From NCBI GenBank assembly GCA_000092065.1, contig CP000593.1: a stretch of 64,000 bases of DNA. One strand, written 5' to 3'. The DNA comes from Ostreococcus lucimarinus. Lineage: Eukaryota. This document shows positions 22,713 to 63,427 of this stretch, piece after piece. A program made the position numbers and the translations under genes. The notes under the pieces are model-generated. The model was not told the origin of the DNA. It saw only the letters and a list, made by a program, of their open reading frames with translations, and did not search any database. Position 1 is the first letter of the stretch, and each line of letters opens with the position of its first letter.

Positions 22713-23986
22713 TTACATCATGCCGGTGCCCACGGAACCGACCGACCAAACGCGAATGACGTTATCGGTGTAGCCCGTGTAGAGGGTGGAACCGTCCGCC
22801 GACCATTGGAGGGAGGTGCAGTACGGTTGTTGGGACTTCTTGCCAACCGGCGGGAACTCCGGGCGGAGCTCGTCGACGATGGACTTGGATTCGAGGTCCC
22901 AAATCTTGACGCAGGACTCGGTCGCCGCGCACAACCAGTAGCGGTTGGGGGAGAAGCACAAGCCGTAAATGATGTCACCCGCATCGAGGGAGTACAATCG
23001 CTTGCCCTCGCCGAGATCCCAAAGCATGGCGACGCCATCCTTGCCGCCGGAGGCGCACAAGGAACCGTCCGGAGAGACGGTGACGGCGTTGATGTAGCCG
23101 GTGTGACCAACAAGGTTGGTGCGAATCTTGCAGTTGGTGAGGTTCCAGACCTTGACGAGCTTATCCCAGCCCCCAGACACGATGATCGGGTTGGAGGTGA
23201 CCGGGGAGAAGCGCACGCACGACACCCACTCGGAGTGCGCGTCGGCGTCTTGAATCGTGTACTTGCACTCGCCGAGCGTGTTCCACAACTTGATCGTCTT
23301 ATCCCGGGAGCCGGAGACGATTTGGCGGTTGTCCACGGAGAAAGCCACCGAAAGGACATCCTTGGTGTGTCCGACAAAGCGTCGGGTGGTGGTACCGGTG
23401 TTAAGGTCCCACAATCGAAGGGTGCCGTCCCAAGACCCCGAGAGCGCGAATTGCCCGTCCGAGGAGATGACGACGTCTTGCACGAAGTGCGAGTGTCCGT
23501 GAAGCGATCGGCGCGGGTAACCGTAGTTCTCTTCCTCGCGCGTCAGGTTCCAAAGGATCACCGTCTTGTCTCGCGAGGACGACAAGAGAATGTCAGAGTT
23601 ATCCAACGGAGTCGCGATGGACGTGACCCAGTTTTCGTGCCTGCGCGGAAATGAAAAAAACGTGTGGGTTAGTGTCGTCGTTCGACGTCGTGATCGAGCT
23701 CGTCGAGCTCGAGTCCGTTTCGCGTGAACGGTCACGCGCTCGAGACGACGCGCGTTCGACGCGTGAAATAATCATCGCACGAACGCGTCGCCGTCGTCGC
23801 GCGTCCCATCGCCGCGCGCCGCCGCCGCGAGCGTCAACGTCCGCCTCGTTCGATGGCGCAGACCCTATTCCACGAACGATCGGTTCGCCGCGCGTTCGCC
23901 GTCGACGCGACGCGACGCGCGCTCGGATCATCGATTCGCGCGACGCACCCCTTGAGCACGCCTCTGAGCTGCATTTGAGTCGCCAT
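22713..23986 (-). CDS. RACK1: RACK1 (receptor for activated C kinase 1, WD40 ribosomal scaffold), two exons
   Basis: Structure: join(23986..23949, 23640..22713), 321 aa. Exon 1 encodes [13 protein letters not shown], and exon 2 continues [16 protein letters not shown]...[17 protein letters not shown]...[31 protein letters not shown]. The unspliced ORF start at 23735 gives a non-homologous N-terminus. Confidence 0.9.
23641..23948 (-). other. spliceosomal intron of RACK1 (308 nt)
   Basis: Read on the minus strand: AAGGG|gtgcgtcgcgcg...cactaacccacacgtttttttcatttccgcgcag|GCACGAA. Exons of 38 + 928 nt sum to 966, which is divisible by 3. Confidence 0.85.
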
Positions 23987-24127
23987 GTCGCGCGTCGAAC
24001 GCGTCGCGTAGAGGCGGACGTCGTCGCGCGCGCCATCCACCCGGTCGCGCGCGCGGGTGATTGTGATGGTCCGTGTGTTTGACACCGCGGGCGGTCTCAC
24101 GACGTCCCGACGCGCGCGGTCGTTTCA

Positions 24128-24133
<6 letters not shown>

Positions 24134-24178
<45 letters not shown>
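24134..24178. repeat. (GAC)15 trinucleotide microsatellite in the RACK1-ADA2 divergent spacer
   Basis: A perfect run of gac units, counted directly from 24134 to 24178. Confidence 0.95.
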
Positions 24179-24180
<2 letters not shown>

Positions 24181-24307
24181 GCGCGAGTCGCGCGTGAACG
24201 CACGCGAGTGAGCGCGCGCACGACCGTCGAGGACGCGCGCGACGGGAACGCGGACGCGGAGGTAACGCGACGCATCGGCATCGGCGTTCGGCATCGCATT
24301 CGGCGCC

Positions 24308-25954
24308 ATGGCGAGCGCGCTCGTGCCGAAACGGCGACGGGTGGCGACGGAAAACGCGATGACGAAGCTGAGTGGGAACGGGGAGTCGTGCGCACTGTTT
24401 AACTGTAACTATTGCCAAAAGGACATCTCGAACGTGGTGCGCGTACGGTGCGCGGAGTGCGCAAACGTGGATCTGTGCACGGAGTGCTTCGCGGTCGGCG
24501 TGGAGCCGCACCCGCACAAGGCGTATCATCAGTATCACGTCATCGACAACATGTCGTTTCCGCTGTTCACGCGAGATTGGGGGGCTGACGAAGAGTTGTT
24601 ATTGCTGGAGGCAGTGGAGATGTTCGGGTTGGGGAACTGGACCGAGGTGAGCGAACACGTCGGGACGAAGACGCGCGCGCAGTGTCACGCGCACTATTTT
24701 GAAGTCTACGTCAAGTCTCCTTGCGCGCCGTTACCGGATATGTCGAAGATTTTAGGAAAAGGCGTCGCGCGTATGACATCAGACGAGCTCAAAGCGGAGG
24801 CGGAGCAAAAGGCGAACGAAAATAAGGATGTGGAGGAGGAGGAGAAGCTTCTCGAATCGCTTGCTAACCCGAACGCAGTGAAGACGGAGGGCAACGTGCA
24901 GGAACTCACAGGTTACAACATCAAGCGCAATGAGTTCGATCCCGAATACGACATGGATGCCGAACTTCCCCTGGCGGAGATGGAATTTCGCGAAAACGAC
25001 ACCGAAGAAGACGTCCAGATGAAGCTGCGAATGATTGAAATCTACAACAGCCGGCTTCAAGAACGAGCGAGAAGAAAACAATTCATTCTCGAACGCAATC
25101 TGCTGAACGTGAAAAAGCAACAAAACGTGGAAAAGAAGCGTTCACAATACGAGCGCGACTTACACGGCACCATGCGTATATTTGCACGCTTTCTCACGAG
25201 TACCGAGTACGACGTCTTGCTCGAGGGTCTCGCCGCGGAGCACCGAATCCGAACCCGCATCACCGAACTGAAAGAGTACAGACGCAATGGTATTCATACC
25301 ATCGCAGAGGGCGAGGATTACGATTTGGAGAAGCGTCGTCGTGAGACGGAGTTCGCTCGTCTACACGCGATCGAGCATCCAACTAGCAAGAACATAGCCA
25401 GAGCGAACAAGTTCATCGTGCGAGATGCCACACAAATCAATGAGCAGTTGACTCGCATGAACGACGAAGACAAGACGGTATCCGTGATCCCGACGCCTCG
25501 TACGTCGAGCTTAGGTCCTCGCCGTCGAATGTACTTGTCACTTGATCTCGCCGATCTTCCAGGCGTAGACCTTTTGAACGACGACGAAAAGGAGTTGTGC
25601 AGGAGCTGTCGCTTATTGCCTGTGCAGTATCTCTCGATGAAGGTGGAGTTGATGCGAGAGGGTCTCAAGTCCGAAAAGCCGCTCAACAGAAATCACGTTC
25701 GGAATATGTTCAAAGTAGACCCACTCAAGGCTATTCGTGTGTATGAGTTACTCCTACAGCACGGCTGGGTGTTGGAAGACGGCTTCGTGAACCCAGGTGA
25801 GGATGAAGACTCCGAACCTGCGCCGAAAAAGTCAGCCAGCGCAGACGAGGAGGAAGACGAGGAGGACGATGAAGTAGATTACGAAACCGACGATAACGAC
25901 GAAGACGAGGACGAGGAAGACGACGAGGAAGAGGATAGCGAGGAAGACGATTAG
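24308..25954 (+). CDS. ADA2: transcriptional adaptor ADA2 (ZZ finger, SANT, SWIRM)
   Basis: ATG verified at 24308. ZZ finger: CNYCQKDISNVVRVRCAECANVDLCTECF...HPHKAYHQY. SANT: WGADEELLLLEAVEMFGLGNWTEVSEHVGTKTRAQCHAHY. C-terminal SWIRM: LLNDDEKELCRSCRLLPVQYLSMK. The tail is acidic. Confidence 0.85.
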   Translation: MASALVPKRRRVATENAMTKLSGNGESCALFNCNYCQKDISNVVRVRCAECANVDLCTECFAVGVEPHPHKAYHQYHVIDNMSFPLFTRDWGADEELLLLEAVEMFGLGNWTEVSEHVGTKTRAQCHAHYFEVYVKSPCAPLPDMSKILGKGVARMTSDELKAEAEQKANENKDVEEEEKLLESLANPNAVKTEGNVQELTGYNIKRNEFDPEYDMDAELPLAEMEFRENDTEEDVQMKLRMIEIYNSRLQERARRKQFILERNLLNVKKQQNVEKKRSQYERDLHGTMRIFARFLTSTEYDVLLEGLAAEHRIRTRITELKEYRRNGIHTIAEGEDYDLEKRRRETEFARLHAIEHPTSKNIARANKFIVRDATQINEQLTRMNDEDKTVSVIPTPRTSSLGPRRRMYLSLDLADLPGVDLLNDDEKELCRSCRLLPVQYLSMKVELMREGLKSEKPLNRNHVRNMFKVDPLKAIRVYELLLQHGWVLEDGFVNPGEDEDSEPAPKKSASADEEEDEEDDEVDYETDDNDEDEDEEDDEEEDSEEDD

Positions 25955-26072
25955 CATGAGACGTTTTCTCCTCATTAGATTTTACAGTGCTGTAGTGACA
26001 TATGACGGGAGTCATTTATTATTAATTTTTTCCCCAGCGTAGAAGCGATCGCCCCGTGCTGCCTGTCGTCTA

Positions 26073-27905
26073 CTACGTGAATTTCACTCTGTTTTGAGGG
26101 TCCATGCTTTCTTTGATTCCACGATACACCAATCCAAGCGAACGGCCTGCGTTAGAGAGAGTAAGTCGATGCACAAAATAATTAATTTCAAACGCACCAA
26201 TTAATGTCACCAGTAACCAAGAAGCCACCCGGCTGCAGTTGTTCAGTGCGCTTCTGAACAAGGGAAGGCTCACATCAGCGAGTTCTATTATCATAGAAAC
26301 AGCTAAACGAAATCCCTTCACCTTTGCGAGCTCTGGCTGGCGACAAACGTGAATTTTCCTCGTCACGAGCTGTGTGAAAAATAATTAATTTCAGCGACAA
26401 ATTAAAAAATTAATTCAAACGCGCCGTCGCGCGGAGATACGTACCTCGCCGTTTGCATTCATGCCCCACAATTTATGCCAATCTTCGTACATCGCGACCA
26501 CGTCGTAATAATTGCGTGCAAGCCACGTGCGCAATGATGTTTCATTTCGAAATTTTTCCAACGAACGTGTGCTCTTCAAGCGAACGCTCAACGCGTCTCT
26601 GAACGGTGGAATGCGCACGACCGCTCCTGTGTCCTCCGTACGTGCGACTCCACCATTTACAGGCGCTTGTAGCCCGCTTTCACGCGCACACGTCACGTAA
26701 GCACACGCCACGGAGTCGGCAATATTTAATACCACGTCCTGCAAAACCGAAACGCACACCGAAGCCATAGGAGAATTGAAGAATTCCAGCACCGGTTCGA
26801 CGTCTTGAGTGTTAATTTTCGTCGATTTCTCAACGACTTGAACGCTTTCGGAAATATTGTCCGTTCGATTGGAGTTCTGCGATGATTGAAATAATTCAGA
26901 ATAATTAAATAAATATTTGTGAAGCTCAGCGAAAGTTAGACGTACCTTGGCCAAATACATCATCACTCCGGCATACAAAGCCATCTTACTTCCTTCAAGT
27001 ATTTCTCCTGTGAAAAACGCGATCAGCTCGGTCGAAGACGAAAGCGAGATCATACGTACCGTTCTGCCAAATTTTTTCATCGGCCACGTCTCCGGCCACG
27101 CGAACCACCCGAGCGCACCGCTCCTTGGCGCCGATGTCAAGCGCCATCGAATTCATCCAATCATTCGCGGAGACCCTAGCCACTGTTTGAATGAGTTCAC
27201 GCAAGCTTCCGTTGCTCTCTTCTATGTTCTCGAGCCCTTCTTTAAGCGCCAAGAGCACCACCCCTATGAGTTGTGCCCTGGCGCCGTCGTTGAGCGCCTG
27301 CAATTCAAGTTGCGGGGACGTGCCTTCTACCCCGCGTGAGTCCCACCAACCAATCGCTACGACGTCGCCTCCGACACCAGCTAACCCTTGACCCGCGGCG
27401 TGGAATATATCATCTCTTCCCGCGTCGGGCTTAAGCAAACTCTCCACGCGCGCCTGGGTGAGCTCTGCGGCTCGCGTTCTCGAGTTTGTCTTCGCGGCGT
27501 CTAACGACTCGTTTTCCCGCTCGATTTCGACAGTATCGTCGTGTCCAAGCAGTATTGGTAACGCCTTCGATGCCTACGAATGAAAATAAATCGGTCAGCC
27601 TCAATCTTCGTCGCGTTTGCGCTCGTTTGCTTCACCGAGAGCGTGCGGCGAGAGGCAACAAAACCACTCTTGACATCGCTCTGTCGGCGCGCACCGATCG
27701 ATTTTAGGTCCGAATCTCGCGCTTGTCGATAACGTACCCTTTGAACGAACGTCTCCAACCCGTTTCTCGCCGCGTCGACGAGATCGACGCCGATTTGCGC
27801 CCGTCGAACCGTTTCTAACCTGCTCCCGCCGCGACGCCCACGCCATCCTCGGCGCGCCGTCGGTGCGCTCGCGAGCGATCGCGACGACGTCGAAACCGAG
27901 AGCAT
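26073..27905 (-). CDS. six-exon gene for a conserved green-lineage protein (DUF3685-like, name from memory)
   Basis: Structure: join(27905..27738, 27573..27060, 27007..26946, 26876..26445, 26369..26198, 26146..26073), totalling 1422 nt (473 aa). All phases are consistent. The splice pattern joins pieces of ORFs 27501..27983, 26995..27447, 26415..27140 and 26073..26366. The C-terminus ...LKSTRSLEKFRNETSLRTWLARNYYDVVAMYEDWHKLWGMNANGE|LVTRKIHVCRQPELAKVKGF...LVTLIG|RSLGLVYRGIKES resembles DUF3685 proteins. Confidence 0.75.
26147..26197 (-). other. intron 5 (51 nt, AT-rich)
   Basis: TTAATTG|gtgcgtttgaaattaattattttgtgcatcgacttactctctctaacgcag|GCCGTTCG. Phase 1 is restored, yielding ...TLIGRSLGL. 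Confidence 0.8.
26370..26444 (-). other. intron 4 (75 nt, AT-rich)
   Basis: GGCGAG|gtacgtatctcc...ttgaattaattttttaatttgtcgctgaaattaattatttttcacacag|CTCGTG. Confidence 0.8.
26877..26945 (-). other. intron 3 (69 nt, AT-rich)
   Basis: GCCAAG|gtacgtctaactttcgctgagc...tatttatttaattattctgaattatttcaatcatcgcag|AACTCC. Confidence 0.75.
27008..27059 (-). other. intron 2 (52 nt)
   Basis: CAGAACG|gtacgtatgatctcgctttcgtcttcgaccgagctgatcgcgtttttcacag|GAGAAATA. Phase 1 is restored across the splice. Confidence 0.7.
27574..27737 (-). other. intron 1 of the six-exon gene (164 nt)
   Basis: CAAAGG|gtacgttatcg...ggctgaccgatttattttcattcgtag|GCATCG. Exon 1 and exon 2 lie in different frames, and exon 2 has an in-frame TAG just upstream of it. 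Confidence 0.65.
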
Positions 27906-28277
27906 GTTCGTGTGGACGCTTTCGCAAATTTCGCCGCGCGCTGTGACGCGCGCGCGGTCTCGCGCTCTGGTTCGGCGCTTCAACGGTCGCCACGAACGTC
28001 GCTTCGTTCGCGCGCGCGGCGCGCGGGGGCCGACGCGGCGTTTATCGCGCGCGTACCGTGTTTGCAGATAGTTCTAAATTGTCTTTGAGTGCGTGATTTT
28101 TCGACGACGATTTCGTAGGGTTGCGCGCCCTCGAGACGCCCACGAAATCGCTCGACGCGCGTTCGTTTTGGCGTTCGTTCGTTCGAAATCGACTCGACGC
28201 GCGTCCACGTCGACCGCGCGCGTGATCGGCGGTGCGCCCGCAGACGGACGCGCGCGGCGCGCGTGCGGACGAATATC

Positions 28278-29312: not shown

Positions 29313-29431
29313 TTTGTAAGTTAGAATTAGATCAAAACAATGATGAGGCGGAGGTGTAAGTATATCACAATAATCGTATTTCTGTCGTTTGCTCGTTTGA
29401 AGTCAACAAGCGCGTAAGGTAAGTTATAATT

Positions 29432-31051
29432 CTAATTGATGGCTGGCGAAAGTTGCGGGTTCGCGAACTTCGGAAGTAAAACGTCGTCGATTTGCTCCGC
29501 CGTGCCCATGTCTCTGACGAATTTCCAGAACGCGACGAAAATGCCGGGAAGTGTTCTGTATGACGAGTAAGGAATGCCCATCTTCGCCGCTTCTTCCGCG
29601 ACAATTTTCGCGATCGCGGGGTAGTGCACAAAGCAAATCGCCGGGAACAGGTGATGCTCGACTTGCAAGTTCAGACCGCCGGTGAAAAAGTTTCCAATCT
29701 TTCCACCCCAGTCAGCGCTAGTCACCAACTGCTGCACGCCCCAATCTCTTTCCCACGCCTCTCCACCGGTATCTTCAGGGAGTTTGGCCTCGGGCACGTT
29801 GTGACTCACCGCGAACGTACACGCGAGGACGACTCCTTGGCACGCCATGAAACCGACGATGCCGGCGACGACGGCGGAAGCCGCGTGGCTCATCAAAGGT
29901 GCAGCCAACAAACCGAAGTGCACAAACTTGCCGATAACTACGGTGGCAAGTTCCCAAGTGGTCGCCCCGTGGAGCTTTGCGCCTTCGGTATCGCGAGTGA
30001 ACAAACCGACGATGTCGCCGACTTGGAACGCCACCTGCAACAACGGAAAGGCCAAGAACATGTACCAGTGCTGGAAGCGGTGGTACCACGCCTTGGGACG
30101 ACGAGCGTCGAAACGCAAGAGAGGCATGGCGGTGTACACGTCTTGATCCATAGCATTGTCGTTGCAGTGAATGTGGTGGCTCACCTGGTGGTGGTATCGC
30201 CACATCAAAGACGAGCCGCCGATGAGATCGTTCGTCAAACCGAGGACGCCGTTGACGGCGGGCGACGGTGACATCGCCCCGTGATTGGCGCAATGCTGAA
30301 TCGTGAGCCCGATCCACGCACCAGCTAAGCCAAGGAGGCAACCCGAGAGAAAGCCCGGGATGGTGGCGTACACACCGTACGCAAACGCGGCGAAAGACAA
30401 AATCGTTATCGTCGCGTGGTCGCCACCCATTCTGTGTTTGTTCTTCCCTTCTTCCGGGAAAAGTTCCTCGCGAACGCGATTGCGGATGTTGTTGTACAGC
30501 GGCGAATCGTTCGGTCTCGGTGACTTCGCCACGGCGTCGACCGGGAACCCCTCGAGCTTGGGTAACATCCTGAAGCGCGCCGTCGCCACCTCTGGTCGCA
30601 AGTGATAGGATTCCATGAGCGCCGTGCAGTCGCGACCGATGGCGAGGTTCAACAACCAGTTCCCGCCCGGATGCTTCTCAAAGAACGGTCCGAGGTCGTA
30701 CGCCACGTCTCGAAACACCGTCCACTTCACCTTTTGCCACTTCTCATCGTTCCACGGATCCTCCATCCCCGGCGCCGCGACGTCCGGGCGCGGCAACCTC
30801 AGCGCCTCGCGTCTCGCCTCCAGGGACATCATCTTCTCCCCCTCCTCGCCCTCGACGCTTCTTTCGACGACCGCGGCGTTCCCTTCGCCCTCGATCGATC
30901 GCGGAACGATCGCATACCTCCCCGATCGCGCGCGCCGCGCGTCCGCGCGCACCGCGCTCGTCGTCGCGCGCGTCGTCGTCGCTCGACGGCGATAATCACA
31001 CCTCGCGCTCGACGTCGTCGTCGTCGCGAACGCGCGCGCGACGGTGCGCAT
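29432..31051 (-). CDS. front-end fatty-acid desaturase with N-terminal cytochrome b5 domain (regiospecificity not assignable by eye)
   Basis: Cytochrome b5 motif: FEKHPGGNW. His boxes: HCANHGA, WRYHHQVSHHIHCN and QVEHHLFP (a Q-type third box, typical of front-end desaturases). The likely start is ATG 31051-31049 (MRTVARAFATTTTSSARC, presequence-like). An upstream in-frame ATG at 31297 is also possible. Confidence 0.85.
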   Translation of the reverse strand: MRTVARAFATTTTSSARCDYRRRATTTRATTSAVRADARRARSGRYAIVPRSIEGEGNAAVVERSVEGEEGEKMMSLEARREALRLPRPDVAAPGMEDPWNDEKWQKVKWTVFRDVAYDLGPFFEKHPGGNWLLNLAIGRDCTALMESYHLRPEVATARFRMLPKLEGFPVDAVAKSPRPNDSPLYNNIRNRVREELFPEEGKNKHRMGGDHATITILSFAAFAYGVYATIPGFLSGCLLGLAGAWIGLTIQHCANHGAMSPSPAVNGVLGLTNDLIGGSSLMWRYHHQVSHHIHCNDNAMDQDVYTAMPLLRFDARRPKAWYHRFQHWYMFLAFPLLQVAFQVGDIVGLFTRDTEGAKLHGATTWELATVVIGKFVHFGLLAAPLMSHAASAVVAGIVGFMACQGVVLACTFAVSHNVPEAKLPEDTGGEAWERDWGVQQLVTSADWGGKIGNFFTGGLNLQVEHHLFPAICFVHYPAIAKIVAEEAAKMGIPYSSYRTLPGIFVAFWKFVRDMGTAEQIDDVLLPKFANPQLSPAIN

Positions 31052-31535
31052 GGCGGGCTCGATCGCTCGGCGCGGATTCGTGGCGTTCGGATCCGTCTCG
31101 GGCGCTTCGCGCGTTCGGGCGTTCGAGCGCTCGCTGTCCCGGACGCGCGCTGTGACGAGCCGACGCGACGACGCCGACGCGACGACGCCGCGCGCGGATC
31201 GGATCGCGTGACGTCGGTCGGGGCGCGTCGGGCGTCGAGGGACTCGTTCTCGAGTCGAGACTCGTCGATGGGATCGGTGTGGTCCGTGTGTATCCATTCA
31301 ATCGCACCATCGGTCGCATCGTCCGATCGCGACCGCTCGCGACCGCTCGCGCTCGCGCTCGAGGCGGACGCGCGGGACGCCGCGGGACGACGACGAGACG
31401 ACGATCCGACGACGCGACGACGCCCGGCACAGCGACGCGCGTCGTCGTCGTCGACGTCGTCGTCGACGAGTCGCGAGCGTCGTCGACGCGCGCGCGTCGT
31501 CGACGCGCGAACGCGACGCGCGCGCCGTCGACGCC

Positions 31536-31673
31536 ATGGCGCTGGATAGGGCGCTCGCGACGCGCGCGCGCGCGAGCGGGGCGTCGACGTCGACGTCGAC
31601 GCGCGACGCGAGCGGACGGCGACCGGGACCCGGCGCGCGAGGACGGCCGGCGAAGGGGCGCGGACGGGGGAAG
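31536..31673 (+). CDS. SGR: candidate first exon (transit-peptide-like) of STAY-GREEN
   Basis: This is the only nearby ATG whose frame reaches a GTGCG-type donor in phase 0 (GGGAAG|gtgcgcgg at 31674). It encodes MALDRALATRARASGASTSTSTRDASGRRPGPGARGRPAKGRGRGK. The model is inferential. Confidence 0.35.
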
Positions 31674-31865
31674 GTGCGCGGCGACCGACGCGACGCGACG
31701 CGCGCGCGACGCGCGTCGATCGGGACGGGACGGGACGTCCGAGGCGCGGTTTTCGCGCGATGGGGGGGGACGGCGACGTCTAAAACCGCGAGCGACGCGC
31801 GAGAAAGGCGCGAGTGCGACTCGATGGAATCGTGACACTGACCGACGGCGATCGCGCGCGCGCAG
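31674..31865 (+). other. candidate SGR intron (192 nt)
   Basis: The acceptor end is well supported: two in-frame TGA codons at 31833 and 31839, then gacactgaccgacggcgatcgcgcgcgcgcag|ACGACG (a CTGAC branch-like motif about 20 nt upstream of CAG). The donor position is tentative. Confidence 0.4.
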
Positions 31866-32507
31866 ACGACGACGAACGCGGTTTTCGACGCCTTGAAGTT
31901 TGACCCGGACAGAGTGTCGGTGGCGTTCGACGCGAGCTCGACGCGGGTGGAACCGGAGTCTTTATTGCAGCGGCGTTACACGCTGACGCACAACGATGTG
32001 ACGAGGAATTTGACGCTCACGGTAGGCGACGCGTTCAACGACGATCAAACGTCGATATGGTACACGAGATTGCTCAGAGACGAGGTGCTCGCGGAGTGGC
32101 GCGAGGACGGCTTGCACGTGTTTTGTCAGGTGAGCGCGAAGGAGGCTTGGTGGATACGATGGGCGGCGCCCCTTCGTTCGGTCGTGTTTCGTCAAAAATT
32201 ACCGTTGGTGTTAGATACGTTGCGTTACGCCGAGAGAGAGCTACTGGCGACGTATCCAGAGTTGTTTGACAGTCCGGTGTACGTCAACTTTGGCTCCGCG
32301 GACGGACCGGGGGACAAGGAGTATTGGGGAGATTTCAGAACGGCTGGATCGGAAGAGACGCGATCGAGTCGAGTGACGTGCGCGGATGGTGCAGGACTGG
32401 ATCCCAGAATAGCAGACAATGTTAGAAACACGATAATCACAGGGCGTGGTTCTCGCGTCGAGGTCGGCGGAGTGATTTTGGAAAACTCCCCAGCGCCTCC
32501 TCGCTAG
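31866..32507 (+). CDS. SGR: STAY-GREEN (SGR) magnesium dechelatase, main exon
   Basis: ...RRYTLTHNDVTRNLTLTVG...WYTRLLRDEVLAEWREDGLHVFCQVS...FRQKLPLVLDTLRYAERELLATYPELFDSPVYVNFGS...EYWG matches the SGR core (RTYTLTHSDITAKLTLAI...RDEVVAEW...LHVHCHIS...CKELPVVLKAF...YPEL). ORF 31893 starts at TTG, and this reading frame contains no ATG. Confidence 0.85.
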   Translation, partial: TTTNAVFDALKFDPDRVSVAFDASSTRVEPESLLQRRYTLTHNDVTRNLTLTVGDAFNDDQTSIWYTRLLRDEVLAEWREDGLHVFCQVSAKEAWWIRWAAPLRSVVFRQKLPLVLDTLRYAERELLATYPELFDSPVYVNFGSADGPGDKEYWGDFRTAGSEETRSSRVTCADGAGLDPRIADNVRNTIITGRGSRVEVGGVILENSPAPPR

Positions 32508-32733
32508 CGAATGCGTTTTGAAGACCACGTCGTCGTCGTGCCGGCGGGCGAGCGACGCGGTCGAGTTTAGGACTTTTTATTACCACCTTTCTCATTAGTA
32601 CTCATCATTCTTCGCACGATTCGAGCGGTGCGAGGAGCCAACGAGAGCTCGCCGACTTCGCAGCCGCTCTTCTGCTCGCCCGACGAGTGACCGCAGACCG
32701 CGCTTCGCACGCGCGTCTCGGTGCGTCGCTACC

Positions 32734-42495: not shown

Positions 42496-43378
42496 ATGAG
42501 CGCGCAGGCGACGCGAGATCAGCTGCGGACGGCGTTCGCGGAGTTAGAGTGCGTCGCGCGATGCGATGGGATGGGATTCGAGCGACGCGAGCGACGCGAC
42601 GAGACGGAATACGCGCGAGGGACGGGACTGACGGAGCGAGCTCGCGACGCGTCGGCGCAGGGACGGATTCAAGCGTAAGGACGTTCTCGAGAGCCGCGAG
42701 ACGTCGGTGTCGAGCGGACACTTGAAAAAGTTGACCAATAAAATGGCGGAGAGTAAAAAGCTGATCAAGGAGTTTGAGAGACGGGCGCTGAGCGAAGGGG
42801 CCATGGACGCGAACGCGTTGGCGGCGGCGAAGAAGGAATACGTGTCGAGGTTGAACAAGTTTGTGCAGATGAAGAAGGAGGCGCAGATTGCGATCGCGGA
42901 GAAACAAGAAGAGAGGAAGAGCGAGGTTGGTAGTCAGGGCGGGGAAGCGAGCACGTCGGGAGGGGTGACGACGTCGACGACGGCTACGTCGACGGCGTTT
43001 ACGTTGCCGGCGTTCCGGCCAAAGCCAAAGGGGGAGATTGTAGAGGATGAGCAGTTGCAACTCATGGAGGCTGGGGATTTGATTGATCACGGTAGGAACG
43101 TCATGGACCAAACGGATAAGAGCATCATGCGAAGCGAAGCGGTGGTTGAGGAGACGATTCAAATAGGGACGCAAACCGCCGAGGCGTTGCGCGGGCAGAC
43201 AAAACAACTGGAGAAAATCGTAGATGATCTCGATGAAATCCACTTTTCGTTGAAAAAGTCGTTTGGCGTGCTGAAGGACATCACCCGTGGGTTAGCGACG
43301 GATAAGTGCATCATGCTCTTGCTCTTTTTGGTCGTCGTCGGCGTAGTTGTGGTCATCATTACGAGGTTCGTGAAGTAG
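42496..43378 (+). CDS. NPSN: NPSN-type (novel plant SNARE) Qb-SNARE, two exons
   Basis: Structure: join(42496..42548, 42661..43378). The spliced N-terminus MSAQATRDQLRTAFAELEDGFKRKDVLESRETSVSSGHLKKLTNKMAESKKLIKEFERR parallels NPSN11 (...FRALSNGFQKLEKIKD...LEELTDKMRDCKSLIKDFDRE). The SNARE motif and tail anchor are VVEETIQIGTQTAEALRGQTKQLEKIVDDLDEIHFSLKKS...ATDKCIMLLLFLVVVGVVVVII. Confidence 0.85.
42549..42660 (+). other. spliceosomal intron of the NPSN SNARE gene (112 nt)
   Basis: GAGTTAGA|gtgcgtcgcgcgatgcg...gggactgacggagcgagctcgcgacgcgtcggcgcag|GGACGGATTC. The phase-2 junction creates GAG (Glu). Confidence 0.8.
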
Positions 43379-48899: not shown

Positions 48900-48949
48900 C
48901 GCGCAACGCGACTCGGGAAGGAAGTTGTTATATTAAACGTAGCATATAT

Positions 48950-53215: not shown

Positions 53216-53309
53216 TCGTTGGCGCGCGAACGACGCGTCGATGTGACGCCTTCGCTGCTCCGCGACCTTTCGTCACAGCGCGACGGCGCCGCGCGCGAGA
53301 CGACGCGCG
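53216..53309. promoter_or_regulatory. 94-bp divergent spacer between the P5A-ATPase and photolyase start codons (inferred shared promoter/5' UTRs)
   Basis: The coordinates follow from the two verified ATGs (53215 minus strand, 53310 plus strand). Confidence 0.4.
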
Positions 53310-54926: not shown

Positions 54927-55011
54927 GACAGCAATCTTTGTTATTCTTAGAGATTTTAGGTAGAAACGTTACAATCACTAGCGACGTACTACTGACACAC
55001 GACGTACATAC

Positions 55012-56691
55012 TTACGGTGCGCCTTCGGCGGAGCAAAGGAAAGGATCTAAAGGCTTCCCAAGCGCATACACAATGAAACCAATGTCCTTCAACTTCTGGT
55101 GGTCCAAGATGAGGCGGCCGTCGAACACAAAGGCCGGCTTTTGCATGACGCCATAGATCGCTTCCCAGTCGTACGTCTTGAACTCGTCCCATTCCGTCAT
55201 AATGCACACGGCGTGCGCACCAGTCAAAGACTCAGTGTGAGTCTTGCAGCACGTGATGGATTTCATCGCTTCCTCGCCCATGTCCAACGCGATTTGCGCC
55301 GCAGCAACCTTCGGGTCATAAATATTGAGCTTCGCACCGTCTTCGATGAGGCCGTGACCGACGTCGATAGCCGGAGACTCACGAGTATCACCCGTATCTT
55401 TCTTAAAAGCGTAACCGAGCATTGAAATCTTCTTGCCGCTGATCGTGTTGAACATGGCGGAAATCATGCGCTTGACGAAGCGGCTCTTTTGGTAGTCGTT
55501 CATGCCGACAACGCTGTGCCAGTACTCCGCCACTTCCGGCAAGCCGTGGCACTCACAAATGTATGCCAAGTTTAAGATATCCTTTTGGAAGCACGAGCCA
55601 CCGAAACCGACCGAGGCGTTCAAAAATTTGGAGCCGATACGCGTGTCGGTGCCGATGGCGTGCGAAACTTGCTGGACATCCGCGCCGGTCGCTTCACAAA
55701 GCGCGCTCATGGCGTTGATGGAAGAAATGCGCTGCGCCAAGAATGCGTTCGCAGCGAGCTTTGAGAGCTCGGCAGACCACAAGTTAGCGGTCAGAATGTT
55801 CTCTTTCGGTACCCAGTTGGAGTACACGCCTACGAGCGCGTCCACCGCCGCTTGACCTTTGGCGTTTTCAATCTTACCCCCGATCAACACGCGATCGGGC
55901 GCATCCAAGTCTACAATGGCCGTACCTTCGGCCAAGAATTCTGGGTTGGACAAGATGTCGAATCGCACGCCGTCGTGCGGGCAGTTGCGCTGGAGCACCT
56001 TTTCAATGGCCTCCGCCGTTCGCACGGGCACCGTAGACTTCTCAACGATGATCTTATCACTCTCGGAGCACGCCGCGATGGTGCGCGCCGCCAACTCCCA
56101 GTACGTCAAATCCGCCGCCTTACCTTTTCCTAAACCAGTCTTCTTCGTCGGCGTGTTCACGGAGACGAAAATCATCTCGCAGTCTCGAATAGCCCCTTCG
56201 ACATCCGTCGAAAAGAACAAGTTCTTCCCTCTGCACTCGAACACGATCTCATCCAACCCGGGCTCATAAATCGGCAGCTCGCTCGAGTTCCACGCGTCGA
56301 TCCTCGGCTGCGAGATGTCCACCACCGTGACCGAGATCTGCGGGCACTTCTTCGCGATCATCGCCATCGTCGGCCCGCCCACGTATCCCGCGCCGATGCA
56401 ACATACTGCGTCGTCCCCGAAACCGCGCGCGTCGTCAGTCCTTCGTCCTCGCGCGCCTCCATTCGCACCGTCGCGCGCTCTCCCATCTTTCGCGCCCGTC
56501 CCAACGCTCTCCCGTCGCCGTCGTCGCGTCTCCGGTCGTCGCCGCGTCTCGCGGATGGTTTCCGGACATCTTTCCGACGACCGTCGCGATCGCCCTCGTC
56601 GCGTCGTCTCGCGCGTCGCGTCGTCTCGCGTCGCGTCGCGTCGCGTCGCTCGCGTCGTTCTTCACGCACTCGTCGTGATCGGCCTCGTCAT
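55012..56691 (-). CDS. UGD: UDP-glucose 6-dehydrogenase, two exons
   Basis: Structure: join(56691..56670, 56405..55012), 471 aa. The spliced N-terminus [29 protein letters not shown]... matches plant UGD ([21 protein letters not shown]). The rest is collinear ([22 protein letters not shown]...[12 protein letters not shown]...). Confidence 0.9.
56406..56669 (-). other. spliceosomal intron of the UDP-glucose dehydrogenase gene (264 nt)
   Basis: ACGACGA|gtgcgtgaagaacgacg...aaggactgacgacgcgcgcggtttcggggacgacgcag|TATGTTGC. The phase-1 junction creates ATA (Ile). There is no in-frame ATG between an upstream TGA (inside the donor) and the GxGxxG motif. Confidence 0.85.
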
Positions 56692-56912
56692 GCCGCGATC
56701 GCGTCGCGTCGCGTCGTCGCGCGCGCGCGTGTGCGGGGCGACCGGATCGCGCGCGCCTCCGAGGCGTCGATGTCGTGTGGGTAAACAGTCCGACGTCGCG
56801 GTCGGTCGTGTATTGGCACCGCGCGCGGGTGTGATTTCGAATTCGATTTCGAAATCGACCTCGCGCGTCGCCGGCGCCGACCGACGCGCGGCGCGCGACA
56901 CCGACGCGCGCG

Positions 56913-58190: not shown

Positions 58191-58212
58191 TACGTAATAT
58201 AAAATCAAAAAT

Positions 58213-58932
58213 CTAAACCACCCCTTGTTTCGTCGTCCCCGTCGGGCGATCCTGCTTGCCCTCGGCGATTTCCTTTGCCTTGCGCGCGTCGCGCCGCGCT
58301 CGCAACTCTTCGATGCTCACCCCTCGAAGCTCGCGCCTGTAAAACAACAACCAATTCGCCACCTGCGCTCGACGCGTCATGTTCGGCGTCAACCCTTCCA
58401 TCTTAAACCCTTTCCATCCCAACGGCGTGAGCGTCGTCTTAATCCCTTGCTTGTGTTCCTCCGGCACCGACCGCGTCAACGCCGCGCACGCCACCTTCAC
58501 CGGCGCGTCAATCTTCGGATCGTACTTCCTCGTCACCCCGATCACGTCCGGTGGTTCGGGATAACTTTTCGCCCAATTCGGAAACACCTCATCCGGCGTC
58601 CACACCTCGTTCGCCGTGAGCGTCTCCGCGTCCAGCTCCACGCGCGAGCGATAGCCCAGCGCGTTCCACACCAGCCGGTTCACCTCCTCATCCGCGAGCT
58701 CCGAGCGCACGATCGACAGCAGCACCTCGTTCGACAGCGGGTCCGCCCCATCGCGCGCGTCGTCCCACGGCTTCGCGCCCCACTCGTCCTCACCAGCGCG
58801 CGTCTCGACGCGTCTTCGTCCCGAGGGCGTTCGCACCGCGGCGGCGCGTCGCGGCGTCGCGCGTCGCGTCGTCGTCGCGTCGCGCGTCGCGCGTCGCAGC
58901 GTCGTCGCGGACGTCGTCGTCGAGCTCGCCAT
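58213..58932 (-). CDS. conserved cyanobacterial/green-lineage protein (DUF1823-like, name from memory), presequence-bearing
   Basis: The first non-overlapping ATG is 58932-58930 (MASSTTTSATTLRRATRD). Conserved-looking core: LSNEVLLSIVRSELADEEVNRLVWNALGYR...VFPNWAKSYPEPPDVIGV...GFKMEGLTPNMTRRAQVANWLLFY. The longer ORF reaching 59307 overlaps the LMBR1-like gene. Confidence 0.65.
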   Translation of the reverse strand: MASSTTTSATTLRRATRDATTTRRATPRRAAAVRTPSGRRRVETRAGEDEWGAKPWDDARDGADPLSNEVLLSIVRSELADEEVNRLVWNALGYRSRVELDAETLTANEVWTPDEVFPNWAKSYPEPPDVIGVTRKYDPKIDAPVKVACAALTRSVPEEHKQGIKTTLTPLGWKGFKMEGLTPNMTRRAQVANWLLFYRRELRGVSIEELRARRDARKAKEIAEGKQDRPTGTTKQGVV

Positions 58933-59062
58933 CGCGCGTCGTCGCTCGCGCGCGTCGTCGTCGAGCGGGCGCGTCGAGGTGTCCCGAGCCGTCCCGGCGC
59001 CGTCGCGACGCCGTCCGCACACGCGCGCGCGCGTCCGCGAGCGCACGTCGCGCGCTCGAGCG

Positions 59063-61150
59063 ATGGAGTGGACGACGCGCGACGTCGCCGCGGACCCGCG
59101 CGCGACGCGCGCGCGCTGGACGCGCTCGGCGGCGGAAACATCGTCCGGGAGCGGTGCGGACGATGGATTCTTCGCGTCGTGGTCGACGCCCGTGTTCGTC
59201 GTCGCGGCGTGCGTCGCGGCGCTCGCCGTGGCGCGATTCGCCGATCGTCGGGTCGGCGCGGCCGTGCGCGCGCACTGTTTCGTCGCGTGGACGCTGGCGC
59301 TGATCATGGTGGGGATCGTGCCGACGGATGTGACGGCGACGCTGCGCGCGGGAGAGGCGCCGCGCGGGTTGGACGCGACGTGGGACGTCGCGTACTGGAG
59401 TACGTACGCGCTGACGTGGATCGTGCTGCCGCTGCACCAGTGTTACGTGGACGCGGCGGATTTTTCGTCCGTGGGACGATTGAAGAGAGCGGCGCGGGAG
59501 AACGCGATGTTTTTGGGAATCGCGGCGACGGCGATGTTCGTGGGCGCGGCGGCGCTGTTGGCGACCGAGTCGCTGTCTTTGGACGCGATGCGCGCGTATG
59601 GGATCGTGGTGGCGAACGTGTGGGGTATTTCGACCGGGGTTTTACTCATGGGGTTTGGTTTGGTGGACGTGCCGCGGGCGATTTGGCGGCGAGCGGCGTT
59701 TAATAATCGTCTCACGCGGTCGTACAAGCGCGTCGCCGGAGTGTCGCGGGCGCTCGGTAACGCTCACGCGCGCTTGGCACGGCAAGTTGTGGCGGTAACG
59801 ACGACGAGTCGAGTGATGCCACGGCGACATAGTTTGCGTTGGGCGATGAGCGTCATCGAAAACGAGACGCCAGAGTTCTCAGAAATGCACCGAGGAAGCT
59901 TAGATGAAGCGTTGGACGCGACAGAGGAAGACGTGCTGGATTACGATTACGATGAGTTGAACGATTTAGTTGCGCTGCGTCGCGCGGTTCGCCGTTCGCT
60001 GAGGCAGTACGATCGCACTAAGGCGCAGTACGTGATAGCGGTGAAGGATGCGTTTGAAGCGGAAGCCGCCGAGCAATCGCGGGCATCGTCAACTCGACGA
60101 TTGCATCGCCCGCCAAACTCGGTATCTCGTAGCGGCTCGCTCGGAAAGTGTATGGATGATGTGCAGTACACGTGGTCGATCGTCATCGTGCCCGTCCTCT
60201 TGAGAGTCATCGCCACTGGTTTGGCCTTTTTTTCGGTATCCATCATCATCGCAGAGAGCAGTATTTGGATCGGGAAACTGTGGGAAGAGGCGGATCAGAT
60301 ATCTCTTTTGAGCGTGATGCTGGAAAACGCTGAAGATTCGACATCGGGTTTGACCTCCATGCACGTCGTCGTGGCGTTTCCGCTCGCTTACATGTGCCTT
60401 TGCACGTTTCATTCCCTCCACAAGCTGGGCATGTTTTCGTTTTACACGCTCGTGCCTCGACACACGGATGCGTTTTCGCTCTTGGTGAACGCGAGTCTGG
60501 TATGCCGTTACTCAGCGCCGCTGAGTTTCAACTTTCTCATGCTTTTGCCCATTATTCGCGCGAGTGGCAAGATGACAACCTTCTCACGGAAGATGGCCAA
60601 CAACGTCCCAGAGCTCGCGGGTGAGCTGAACATCATCGTGCCCACGTTTTTGGGCTTGTACTGCGTCGCCATCGCCCTCGGCTGGTTCGACCGCATCGCA
60701 CGCGTACTCAACGTGGAGGGGTTTAAATTCGATAGCGACAAAGACGTGAATGAGAGCACGGAAACTGGAAAGTCAATCGTAGACAGGGAACGCGCCGAAG
60801 TCATGGACGGCGCCGAAATCGGAAGCTCGCACGAATCTTTCGTCTCTGAGACTGCGCCTCGCGAGCAAAGGCTTCCGCCAATTGCTTCGAATAGTAACGA
60901 GTGGAACGACGTCGAGCACGACGCTCGAGGAGGTCTGCTATCGACCTATCCCGATCCGGAATCCGCGAGCGCACGGTGGGAGACGCAAAAAGCCCGTCTC
61001 GCCCAAGCCACGCAAGCGAGCGCCGCAAGAGCCGTACCGCGCGGGTCGCCGCTCTCGCGAACTGGTCGAGACAAAGTGAGCGAACTCGACTTCATGTTCT
61101 CGAACCTCGGTCGCCGCAGCAGCGGCGGTGAATCGTTCTCGGATGAATGA
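59063..61150 (+). CDS. LMBR1-domain (LIMR family, LMBD2-like) multipass membrane protein
   Basis: ORF 58979 begins at GTG; the first ATG is 59063. WDVAYWSTYALTWIVLPLHQCYVDAADFSSVGRLKRAARENAMF is the typical LMBR1 N-terminal block. There are about 9 TM segments separated by a long coiled loop. Confidence 0.72.
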   Translation: MEWTTRDVAADPRATRARWTRSAAETSSGSGADDGFFASWSTPVFVVAACVAALAVARFADRRVGAAVRAHCFVAWTLALIMVGIVPTDVTATLRAGEAPRGLDATWDVAYWSTYALTWIVLPLHQCYVDAADFSSVGRLKRAARENAMFLGIAATAMFVGAAALLATESLSLDAMRAYGIVVANVWGISTGVLLMGFGLVDVPRAIWRRAAFNNRLTRSYKRVAGVSRALGNAHARLARQVVAVTTTSRVMPRRHSLRWAMSVIENETPEFSEMHRGSLDEALDATEEDVLDYDYDELNDLVALRRAVRRSLRQYDRTKAQYVIAVKDAFEAEAAEQSRASSTRRLHRPPNSVSRSGSLGKCMDDVQYTWSIVIVPVLLRVIATGLAFFSVSIIIAESSIWIGKLWEEADQISLLSVMLENAEDSTSGLTSMHVVVAFPLAYMCLCTFHSLHKLGMFSFYTLVPRHTDAFSLLVNASLVCRYSAPLSFNFLMLLPIIRASGKMTTFSRKMANNVPELAGELNIIVPTFLGLYCVAIALGWFDRIARVLNVEGFKFDSDKDVNESTETGKSIVDRERAEVMDGAEIGSSHESFVSETAPREQRLPPIASNSNEWNDVEHDARGGLLSTYPDPESASARWETQKARLAQATQASAARAVPRGSPLSRTGRDKVSELDFMFSNLGRRSSGGESFSDE

Positions 61151-61208
61151 ATATATTGTTGCAACATCGCTCGCGCGCCTAGATAAAATTACACCCCTCT
61201 ACGACAGC

Positions 61209-61856
61209 CTACTCCTCCGGCAACAGCGCCAGCGCGTGCCCATCGACGCACACCGTCCCACACTTCACTTTCCGCACCACCGTCTCGTACCGCGCCCTCG
61301 TTCCCGATCGTTTCACCAATTTCAACTCAATCTCCAGCTCCTCGTCCACGCGCACCGGTTCCCTGAATTTCAACTCTTGGCTCGCGTACACCGTCCCCGG
61401 CCTCGCGCGCGCCAGCAGCGCCCCGAACGCGCTCGCCGCCAGCATTCCGTGCACCGCGCGTCCTCGCAATCGATTCTCGCCGTCACCCACCGCGCCGTCG
61501 TCGAAGTGAATCGGATTCTCATCGCCCGTCAACCGCGCGAACGCCGCGCAATCGTCCGCCGTGAACGTCCTGCGCTCGCGCAGCGCGTCCGCGCGCGTCG
61601 ACGACGTCGCGGACATCCCGCGCCGCGCCGCGGACGACCGCGCGAGCGCGCGCGCGACGATTCGCGCGCGCATCACCGTCGGTCGCGCGACACAGCGCCG
61701 CGCGCCGGCGTCTGCGGCGTCGCGCGATGTCCGCGTCGGTCGACGCGCGCGCGCGCGCGCCGACGACGCGGTGGACATCGCGCGCGACGACGCGCGCGGC
61801 GACGAACGGCGCGGCGCGCGCGCGGCGAAGGAGTCGCGAGGGAATCGCGCGGGCAT
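61209..61856 (-). CDS. MaoC-like hot-dog-fold dehydratase (R-specific enoyl-CoA hydratase / HTD2-like)
   Basis: ATG verified at 61856-61854. RTFTADDCAAFARLTGDENPIHFDD...RAVHGMLAASAFGALLA...GTVYASQELKFREPVRVDEELEIELKL. A long Arg/Ala/Ser presequence means internal ATGs are alternative starts. Confidence 0.75.
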   Translation of the reverse strand: MPARFPRDSFAARAPRRSSPRASSRAMSTASSARARARRPTRTSRDAADAGARRCVARPTVMRARIVARALARSSAARRGMSATSSTRADALRERRTFTADDCAAFARLTGDENPIHFDDGAVGDGENRLRGRAVHGMLAASAFGALLARARPGTVYASQELKFREPVRVDEELEIELKLVKRSGTRARYETVVRKVKCGTVCVDGHALALLPEE

Positions 61857-61936
61857 TCAATTCCGGCGGCGGCTCGACGACGCGCCGCGGACGCGCGCTT
61901 CGCGTCGCTCGACGCGGTGCGGACGCGGACGACGCT

Positions 61937-62737
61937 ATGATGGACGACGACGACGACGACGACGCGAGCGCGAGCGCGTCGGGACGCGCGGCCGAGGACG
62001 CGCGGTGGCTGGACGAGGACGAGGCGCGACGCGCGCGAGGGGCGACGGCGTCGGCGTCGACGCGACAACGGCGAGCGGCGCGAAGGGAACCGCGAGAGCG
62101 ACGAAACGAGCGACGGGATCGAGGTGGAGCGCGACCGAACGTGCTGGTGCTGACGCAGCGGGATTACGAACGCGTGCTGCCCATCGCGGCGACGGGGGAG
62201 CAATACGGGTACTTTTGGGGGGATAACGATACCGCGTTTCAACGCGTGGGGTTGTCGCTGTTGACGACGGTGTTGACCGCGAATGCGGCGCCGGCGCTCG
62301 CCGTGCCCGCGAGCACGTTTTTTTTGTGGGCACCCGTGGCGTTAGCGGCGCGACGTAACTCAAAGGTGCGAAGCGCTAAATACGCGGGCCTGTGGCGCGC
62401 CAGAGTCATCTCAGTCGAGCCCGTGGAGACGCGCGGGACGTCGAGCGTAGATTGGATGTTTAACCTAGTCGTCGGAGATAGATCCGGGGCGCGAGTACCG
62501 CTGAAAGTTCCTTTAAAAGCGGAGTACGCGGATATCAACGTAGGCGACGACGTCGAGCTCATCGTGACATCAGACGACCCGTACTTTTACACGTTTCAAG
62601 CCGTTCGCGAGGCGTATTTTCCGTTCCTTAACGTCTGGGTGGGCGAGTATCCGTTCCTCGACCGTCGTGGGATGGTGAGCGTGAGCGATCGTTTAGCCGG
62701 GGAAGAGGAGGCGCGTCGCGCCAGGGCGAGAGGATAA
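61937..62737 (+). CDS. hypothetical membrane protein (acidic N-terminus, two hydrophobic segments, conserved-looking C-terminal domain)
   Basis: The in-frame ATG pair at 61937/61940 (MMDDDDDDD) is the first start that does not overlap the MaoC gene. Sequence: ...GEQYGYFWGDNDTAFQRVGLSLLTTVLTANAAPALAVPASTFFLWAPVALAA...VELIVTSDDPYFYTFQAVREAYFPFLNVWVGEYPFLDRRGM. I recognise no family. Confidence 0.55.
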   Translation: MMDDDDDDDASASASGRAAEDARWLDEDEARRARGATASASTRQRRAARREPRERRNERRDRGGARPNVLVLTQRDYERVLPIAATGEQYGYFWGDNDTAFQRVGLSLLTTVLTANAAPALAVPASTFFLWAPVALAARRNSKVRSAKYAGLWRARVISVEPVETRGTSSVDWMFNLVVGDRSGARVPLKVPLKAEYADINVGDDVELIVTSDDPYFYTFQAVREAYFPFLNVWVGEYPFLDRRGMVSVSDRLAGEEEARRARARG

Positions 62738-62778
62738 ACTGATAAAAGCGCCGCACTTACACTGCAATAGAACACTAC

Positions 62779-63427
62779 TCACTTCTCGTCCAATTCGTCC
62801 ATCATCTTCTCCAGCTCGCTCGCCGGCATTTCTTCCAAACGCTTTTGCATCACCGCGTTTTCGTACTGTTTAACCATCGTCGAAACGAAACGTCTGAGCG
62901 TCAGTCTTCGGTTCGCGTTTTCTTTCTCCTTCGCGTTTCGTCTCGCGCTCTCGCCTCGTTCGCTTCGCACGCACATCCTTCAACTGCTTCGCGTAAGTCA
63001 TGTCCTTATTGAACACTCGCATGACGTACGACCCCACCCACGCGAGCGTCAATCCGAGCACGAACGTCAACTGCACCGCGTTGCCCGCCTTCGTCGAATC
63101 CATCCCCGCGAACGATTGCAACCCGTAGTACGCCGCGAATCCCGCGCCCGTGACCCCGGTCCCGATCAGCATCACGTCCGCGCGCGTGTACCCGAACGGC
63201 ACGTCGCCTTCATCGTCCGCGGGCGTCGCGCGCGTGCGCGTGGTCTTCCCGACGCGCGGCGATTCCAGCCTTCGCGTCGTCGTCATCGTCTTCGTCGTCG
63301 CGCGCGCGCGCGTCGCGCTCGACCGCGCGGCCGCGAACACGCCGCGCGCGCGTCGCGTCGTCGCGCGTCGCGTCGTCGCGCATCGCGCCGTCGTCGTCGT
63401 CGCGCGCGTCGTCGTCGCGAACGTCAT
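62779..63427 (-). CDS. DUF3007-like small membrane protein (cyanobacterial/plastid lineage, name from memory), two exons
   Basis: Structure: join(63427..62975, 62865..62779), 179 aa. Splicing joins ...AGNAVQLTFVLGLTLAWVGSYVMRVFNKDMTYAKQLKD to YENAVMQKRLEEMPASELEKMMDELDEK, which lies in another frame (ORF 62779..62976). The presequence is MTFATTTRATTTTARCATTRRATTRRA. Confidence 0.78.
62866..62974 (-). other. spliceosomal intron of the DUF3007-like gene (109 nt)
   Basis: AAGGAT|gtgcgtgcgaagcg...ccgaagactgacgctcagacgtttcgtttcgacgatggttaaacag|TACGAA. The junction is phase 0; exon 1 is 453 nt and exon 2 is 87 nt. Confidence 0.75.

Follow-up and report, generated by a model that had tools for sequence, protein, structure and literature searches.

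Shared splice signals and low-complexity sequence among ten introns of Ostreococcus lucimarinus

Ten introns lie in a stretch of 64,000 nucleotides from the green alga Ostreococcus lucimarinus (GenBank assembly GCA_000092065.1, contig CP000593.1; the whole stretch is hereafter the window), where they interrupt the genes for RACK1, SGR (Staygreen), NPSN (a SNARE), UGD and two proteins with the domains DUF3007 and DUF3685. They are very probably regular canonical spliceosomal introns of O. lucimarinus CCE9901, the similarity of their ends being a matter of shared grammar and not of shared ancestry. An earlier note, made from the sequence alone, had drawn attention to the uniform splice signals of these introns, to their extreme 5' position and to exact words common to introns of unrelated genes, and had proposed either low-complexity GC-rich DNA or related, propagated introns of the kind known as introners from Micromonas. 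We found that the splice signals are the published consensus of the species and that the shared words are coincidental low-complexity matches of the (GACGCG)n type rather than homology. Intron positions are conserved in other Ostreococcus lineages, and the intron bodies evolve fast, with a composition that mirrors that of the adjacent promoter spacers.

Introns and their splice signals

All ten introns mapped in the earlier note were recovered, with lengths of 51–308 nt. They and the genes concerned are as follows (a slash marks the exon–intron boundary).

22713–23986, minus strand: RACK1 gene.
23641–23948, minus strand: RACK1 intron, 308 nt, phase 2, GC 0.65, following a first exon of 38 nt; donor GGG/GTGCGTCG, acceptor GCGCAG, branch CACTAACC at 28 nt from it.
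26076–27905, minus strand: DUF3685 gene, six exons and five introns (a–e).
27574–27737, minus strand: DUF3685 intron a, 164 nt, phase 0; donor AGG/GTACGTTA, branch GGCTGACC 21 nt from the acceptor.
27008–27059, minus strand: DUF3685 intron b, 52 nt, phase 1; donor ACG/GTACGTAT, branch AGCTGATC 15 nt from the acceptor.
26877–26945, minus strand: DUF3685 intron c, 69 nt, phase 0, AT-rich (GC 0.30); donor AAG/GTACGTCT.
26370–26444, minus strand: DUF3685 intron d, 75 nt, phase 0, GC 0.37; donor GAG/GTACGTAT, with TGAAATTAATTATTTT directly 5' of the acceptor.
26147–26197, minus strand: DUF3685 intron e, 51 nt, phase 1; donor TTG/GTGCGTTT, with TGAAATTAATTATTTT directly 3' of the donor; branch CTCTAAC 5 nt from the acceptor.
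31536–32507, plus strand: SGR gene.
31674–31865, plus strand: SGR intron, 192 nt, phase 0, GC 0.73, following a first exon of 138 nt whose ATG is at 31536; donor AAG/GTGCGCGG, branch CACTGACC 24 nt from the acceptor.
42549–42660, plus strand: NPSN intron, 112 nt, phase 2, GC 0.71, following a first exon of 53 nt whose ATG is at 42496; donor AGA/GTGCGTCG, branch GACTGACG 29 nt from the acceptor.
55012–56691, minus strand: UGD gene.
56406–56669, minus strand: UGD intron, 264 nt, phase 1, following a first exon of 22 nt whose ATG is at 56691; donor CGA/GTGCGTGA, branch GACTGACG 29 nt from the acceptor, with a (GACGC)n-like tract inside.
62866–62974, minus strand: DUF3007 intron, 109 nt, phase 0, located 84% of the way along the coding sequence; donor GAT/GTGCGTGC, acceptor AAACAG, branch GACTGACG at 35 nt from it.

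The donor hexamer is GTGCGT in five of the ten introns, GTACGT in four and GTGCGC in one (SGR); the base 5' of it is G in seven (A in NPSN and UGD, T in DUF3007), and every intron ends in YAG. The statement that all donors are of the G/GTGCGT or G/GTACGT type was thus right for nine hexamers but not for that of SGR, and the preceding G is less regular than it implied. GACTGACG occurs as the branch motif in NPSN, UGD and DUF3007, ACTGAC in SGR and ACTAAC in RACK1, all at 24–35 nt from the acceptor, and in seven of the ten introns the branch A lies 15–35 nt from the acceptor. Branch motifs are weaker in the DUF3685 introns, of which c has a CTAAC 59 nt from the acceptor and d only a CTGAA; the range of 5–40 nt given for CTGAC, CTAAC or CTGAT therefore describes most of the introns but not these two. 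The three copies of GACTGACG in the window are no more than chance would give.

Most of the 5' bias that had been described is also there. First exons are very short in RACK1, UGD and NPSN and reach 46 codons in SGR, so that four of the five single-intron genes carry an extremely 5' intron; DUF3007 is the exception, and introns b–e of DUF3685 lie at 48–95% of the coding sequence. Such a bias is a general property of intron-poor genomes. RACK1 and UGD are, moreover, kinds of gene that are usually highly expressed, and introns are over-represented in the highly expressed genes of O. lucimarinus (Lanier 2008).

Both the signals and their placement have precedents. In O. lucimarinus introns outside chromosome 2 that were confirmed by expressed sequence tags, the 5' splice site has the consensus GTGCGTG (4.8 bits), ACTGAC is found in 87% and GACTGACG in 66.5% (Irimia & Roy 2008, PMC2483917). 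Canonical introns of the related Micromonas have an AG/GTGCGT donor and an NCTGAC motif, with most of them at gene 5' ends (Verhelst 2013, PMC3879977). The uniform grammar is real, but it is the published consensus of the species and already known, as is the 5' position for the lineage. The window introns share with the canonical set the species, GT-AG boundaries, GTGCGT(G), and ACTGAC or GACTGACG at a fairly fixed distance, and their lengths are compatible with the mean of ~188 nt given in the literature (Lanier 2008). They depart from it in the DUF3685 introns, with mostly GTACGT donors and weaker branch motifs, and in the GTGCGC donor of SGR. Introns c, d and e of DUF3685 are short and AT-rich (51–75 nt, GC 0.30–0.37) and in this resemble the variable type of chromosome 2; it is by splice signals that the non-chromosome-2 class was assigned. 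The window averages ~60% GC, and the contigs that carry the spliced proteins are 528,469 and 321,799 nt long. Very short first exons and strong consensus signals also recall the 5'-biased single introns of intron-poor eukaryotes such as budding yeast, the window introns having, besides, CpG-rich, low-complexity bodies continuous in character with the promoter spacer. On the sense strand the SGR, NPSN, UGD and DUF3007 introns are rich in G (0.34–0.45; 34% in DUF3007 and 43–45% in the others) and poor in T (0.06–0.12), with positive GC and AT skew, and being so T-poor they lack a polypyrimidine tract; the RACK1 intron has no such skew.

The intron models are anchored in independent sequences. 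At every residue, the spliced RACK1 (321 aa; XP_001421096/XP_001422858), UGD (471 aa; XP_001421104/XP_001422850) and SGR (259 aa; XP_001420948/XP_001422946) products equal proteins of O. lucimarinus CCE9901. An intron-less, transcript-like environmental contig (L013) aligns with 23991–23948 and then with 23641–22634, joining 23948 straight to 23641 in RACK1. The spliced 256-aa NPSN protein was found in the protein collection, and an MMETSP transcript protein (P0142) crosses its junction. Splicing of DUF3007 extends the Pfam match from positions 2–78 to 2–95 of the 96 in the profile and brings its score to 117.9 bits, against 83.6 bits before splicing. The five-intron model of DUF3685 was set by homologue search; it is 100% identical to a 473-aa protein (P0225) over the part compared and agrees with an MMETSP transcript protein from a relative (P0228). 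Reading through intron c would add 23 residues, which both of these proteins lack. A transcript-like contig (RACK1) and MMETSP transcript proteins (NPSN and DUF3685) thus cover splice junctions, the other introns being defined by protein or Pfam matches only. An exact-protein look-up returned no match for the unspliced open reading frames at 24308–25954 and 29432–31297.

The species matters for the introner reading because the idea was borrowed from Micromonas. An origin of the window from that genus was ruled out: the exact RefSeq matches are to O. lucimarinus, and the homologue search gave no near-identical Micromonas protein. DNA of the window is common in marine metagenome assemblies at 99% identity, and the two loci with the shared 13-mer (RACK1 and NPSN) are present in hundreds of assemblies.

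Several side observations concern these genes. RACK1, SGR and UGD have two accessions each (ABO99xxx and ABP01xxx), recorded on two contigs; the stretch is therefore present twice in the deposited assembly, as either a segmental duplication or a redundant scaffold. The match of the environmental RACK1 contig to the window begins no earlier than 5 nt upstream of the ATG, positions 1–102 of the contig being unlike window 23992–24100, with no acceptor site at the break; this 5' end may stem from a chimeric assembly, a second genomic copy or a strain difference. As for DUF3685, the annotated O. tauri protein (P0227, 581 aa; L014, strain RCC1115) seems to be translated through the orthologous intron e into a long tail rich in serine, and the O. 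lucimarinus RefSeq model (P0230, 275 aa) comprises the C-terminal part only. Compared with the transcript-supported 473-aa model, both annotations look wrong.

Shared words and low-complexity DNA

The words reported as shared are indeed in the introns. The 13-mer GTGCGTCGCGCGA opens those of RACK1 (23936–23948, minus strand) and NPSN (42549–42561, plus strand), the 18-mer GACGCGAGCGACGCGACG is found in NPSN (42584–42601, plus strand) and UGD (56639–56656, minus strand), and GGACTGACG, noted before as ggactgacg, in NPSN (42625, plus strand) and UGD (56433, minus strand). NPSN and UGD have GGACTGACG in common because it is the branch-point consensus of the species. Against dinucleotide shuffles the shared words look rare. 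Because CpG-rich simple repeats abound throughout the window, the null was taken from real DNA of matched composition, namely random window segments matched in length with GC of at least 0.65 and CpG of at least 0.20 per nt. Of such pairs, 19% share an exact word of 13 nt or more (P=0.19), so that the length of the RACK1–NPSN match is unremarkable. Sense matches are found in other pairs as well (17 nt between SGR and UGD, 16 nt between RACK1 and UGD), and antisense matches are as long (20 nt between RACK1 and SGR, 17 nt between RACK1 and UGD). Matches in both orientations fit simple repeats and not introners, which are inserted in the sense direction.

The surrounding DNA has the same character. 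Between 19052 and 64000, all head-to-head spacers longer than 30 nt have a GC of 0.66–0.75 and 0.23–0.30 CpG per nt, and the four 5'-proximal introns are like these 5' spacers (GC 0.65–0.73, CpG 0.23–0.26 per nt); tail-to-tail spacers have a GC of 0.14–0.47. Smith–Waterman scores averaged 25.5 between introns (maximum 43), 28.8 between introns and spacers (maximum 64) and 36.4 between spacers (maximum 62). 16-mers of the GC-rich introns recur in spacers (38160, 41850, 53280, 56700), in coding DNA (58830, 63330) and at 5730, 9090 and 12330–12510. In unmasked BLASTN, the best match of the UGD intron is coding DNA at 63345–63412 (85.7% over 70 nt, E 4e-15), and the UGD intron aligns with that of NPSN over no more than 27 nt (E 7e-6). 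After dust masking, no intron has any non-self match in the window at E≤1e-3, the outcome that the earlier note had set against introners. Its alternative suggestion of low-complexity GC-rich DNA is borne out, with the strings belonging to (GACGCG)n-type repeats that are also present in divergent-promoter spacers and coding DNA.

Two side observations illustrate this type of sequence. A tandem 9-mer, (CGCGTCGCT)n, occupies 9090–9150, and its reverse complement (GACGCGAGCGACGCGAGCG...) holds 21-nt exact matches to the NPSN intron; the 18-mer therefore belongs to a microsatellite family. In the divergent spacer between DUF1823 and LMBR1, including the gene starts, a metagenome contig of the same species (L003, ~15723–15824) differs in length from window 59032–59105 by ~28 nt, which suggests indel polymorphism in CpG-rich low-complexity DNA.

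Orthologous introns and an AT-rich element

A propagated intron is expected to be young and absent from orthologues. The positions of the RACK1, UGD and NPSN introns are shared with other lineages, which makes these introns old, with turnover of their sequence. O. tauri has a UGD intron at the identical phase-1 site, unalignable in sequence and without a (GACGC)n tract. In RACK1, an intron of 275–286 nt occupies the same phase-2 site in two other Ostreococcus lineages (L006 and L007–9, with 96% and 88% protein identity); these introns begin with GTACGTTTTACGA or GTGCGTGGTAGAG, unlike the 13-mer of the window. The NPSN intron follows the same ...AEL(E/D) codon in phase 2 in a lineage of 67% protein identity (L017), where it begins with GTACGTCGAGTCG and carries a (GTC)n tract. 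Even in a close lineage (L010–12), where its position and phase agree with those of the window, the 18-mer has changed to GATGCGAGCGACGCGGCG and a 7-nt deletion lies nearby. Each of the five DUF3685 introns has a counterpart of equal position and phase in O. tauri or another divergent lineage; O. tauri has one at the site of intron a, and its intron at the position of intron c is likewise AT-rich. The UGD and DUF3007 introns are present in four metagenome contigs of 99% identity (L001–L004). One further DUF3685 sequence (L015) equals the window over the part compared and is uninformative on conservation.

The only sharing between introns of the window that looks non-random is that of an AT-rich, partly palindromic motif, GAAWTTAATTAWTTT, within the DUF3685 gene. 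Introns d (26370–26444) and e (26147–26197) share the AT-only 16-mer TGAAATTAATTATTTT in sense orientation, and all three occurrences of AATTAATT in the 64 kb are within these two introns. At two mismatches or fewer, the degenerate motif is found in the window at these two places only, where 0.09 occurrences would be expected, and so flanks the 172-nt exon 5. Unlike the other orthologous introns compared, which are poorly alignable or unalignable, this element is kept: a recognisable form stands at the same two places in O. tauri (L014, 2030–2060 and 2236–2260) and in a third lineage of 62% protein identity (L016, 3160–3190 and 3368–3390), the copy in intron e of the latter being weaker (TTGAATTAAATTTTTT). 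In the RNAalifold structure, eight weak A-U/G-U pairs join the end of exon 5, UUAAUUGGU, to the motif of intron e and enclose the 5' splice site, a hairpin without covariation because the columns barely vary. Given its length, skipping of exon 5 would shift the frame. Judged from sequence, the motif might be a conserved intronic element of splicing control, a possibility that we regard as rather doubtful; it could act by sequestering the 5' splice site through pairing with UUAAUUGGU, or by pairing across the exon and so promoting its skipping. The sharing is confined to one gene and has no bearing on the introns of unrelated genes.

Origin of the similarity

The idea that the RACK1, NPSN and UGD introns form a degenerate introner-like family, copied by reverse splicing or by a transposon, draws on the 13 nt common to the starts of the RACK1 and NPSN introns, whose first 60–70 nt align at 71%, on the 18–19 nt and GGACTGACG common to NPSN and UGD, and on the existence of introners in a related genus. 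Micromonas has the families IE-A, IE-B and IE-D (CCMP1545), IE-C, equivalent to ABC-IE (RCC299), and E2-IE (CCMP2099) (Verhelst 2013; Simmons 2015), which resemble the window introns in their GYGCGT-type donors, GACTGAC(G) branch point and CAG acceptor. In those families, however, members are ~80% or more identical over their whole length, have family-specific lengths and internal motifs, tend to lie mid-gene and occupy positions not shared with orthologues, none of which is so in the window. Lengths there are far from uniform (112 nt in NPSN, 264 nt in UGD and 308 nt in RACK1), full-length similarity among introns of unrelated genes was not found in the window, masking removes all significant matches, and non-intron DNA matches better. 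Antisense matches equal sense ones in length, GGACTGACG is the branch-point consensus, and at the orthologous positions the shared words are absent or mutated. The IE-A1 motif ACTGGTYCCCRTACGACC has no match in the window at three or fewer mismatches, and IE-A1 GCCTTTCAACTC and IE-C TATGGGCAA...GACTGACGTG are at chance level there, the three sites inspected lying outside an intron context. No terminal inverted repeats or target-site duplications were found at the introns, terminal complementarity not exceeding 9 matches and flanking direct repeats 4 nt.

The introns also lack marks of a special RNA. The folds of the GC-rich introns are no more stable than those of dinucleotide shuffles (z 0.01 to 1.63), which gives no support to a special structure such as the 5' splice-site pairing proposed for introner lariats. 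The yeast homologue of RACK1 hosts a small nucleolar RNA in an intron. Rfam gave no match at gathering score in the whole window, with two far-below-threshold matches in the RACK1 intron, and so no support for small nucleolar or other known RNAs hosted in the introns. In the literature, repeat introns are unique to Micromonas among the Mamiellophyceae (Verhelst 2013, PMC3879977), and the portions of the literature surveys considered here do not report introners in Ostreococcus. In the supplement to a survey of 3,325 genomes, Ostreococcus stands, at no fewer than two of the seven occurrences of its name, in a list of TARA metagenome-assembled genomes, and no Ostreococcus was found in the introner table as far as the first part of the file covers it, which is weak evidence (Gozashti 2022). 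Taken with the tests above, we consider a propagated family in these three genes extremely improbable, and a low-copy introner-like family in Ostreococcus no less so.

Functional convergence offers another account, in which selection would maintain the (GACGCG)n-rich first introns, rich in G and poor in T, as a cis-element; this might enhance expression, being promoter-proximal or intron-mediated, or form an R-loop or CpG-island-like feature. The G-rich, T-poor sense strands of SGR, NPSN, UGD and DUF3007 and the over-representation of introns among genes with high expression (Lanier 2008) speak for it, as does the density of GACGCGACG-type words, which is highest in introns (8.7–11.8 per kb, against 1.2–3.5 in spacers and 0.4–0.85 in coding DNA). 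That enrichment, however, owes much to a single tandem tract in the UGD intron, and the RACK1 intron has the motif in antisense and no strand skew. Nor are the tracts kept in orthologues, as O. tauri UGD has none, a (GTC)n takes their place in the NPSN intron of L017 and the 18-mer of L010–12 carries mutations. We therefore hold a selected element to be very unlikely, if somewhat less so than an introner family.

The reading of the ten introns as canonical ones with coincidentally similar bodies has points against it too. A common substring of 19 nt or more occurs in only 0.7% of composition-matched pairs, so that the 19-nt match of NPSN and UGD has a P of ~0.007 per pair. The 7 nt 3' of GTGCGT are the same in RACK1 and NPSN, with a chance of ~0.002 per pair in GC-rich non-coding DNA, or ~0.01–0.02 over the 6–10 comparable pairs; this is a mild, post-hoc coincidence. 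Further, the density of GACGCGACG-type words in the 5' introns is 2.5–6 times that of GC-rich spacers, and the 5' introns are therefore not identical in composition to the spacers. Finally, the window covers 64 kb of a 13-Mb genome, and a low-copy intron family would escape notice.

If the introns are canonical, as we think, they would be alike at both ends because an intron-poor species needs near-consensus signals: a GTGCGTG or GTACGT donor, and GACTGACG or ACTGAC at ~20–35 nt from YAG. Such strictness would reflect what the splicing machinery requires in an intron-poor genome, as Irimia & Roy propose. The (GACGCG)n and (CGCG)n tracts of the bodies probably arose by replication slippage in CpG-rich DNA, and the short exact matches would then be by-products of simple-repeat composition and not of intron copying between genes. 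A 5' bias of introns is attributed to 3'-biased loss mediated by reverse transcripts and/or to selection for promoter-proximal introns, and in the window the bias may likewise come from such loss, from such selection in highly expressed genes, or from both.

Introners in Ostreococcus, if true, would have added one of the most compact and best-studied eukaryotic genomes to the list of those with ongoing intron gain; the evidence is that they are not present in this window. The ten introns instead offer a local illustration of published facts, namely that intron-poor genomes enforce near-identical splice signals and retain 5' introns. For scans that look for propagated elements they carry a caution: in CpG-rich genomes of low complexity, exact 13–20-mers shared between non-coding segments do not amount to homology.

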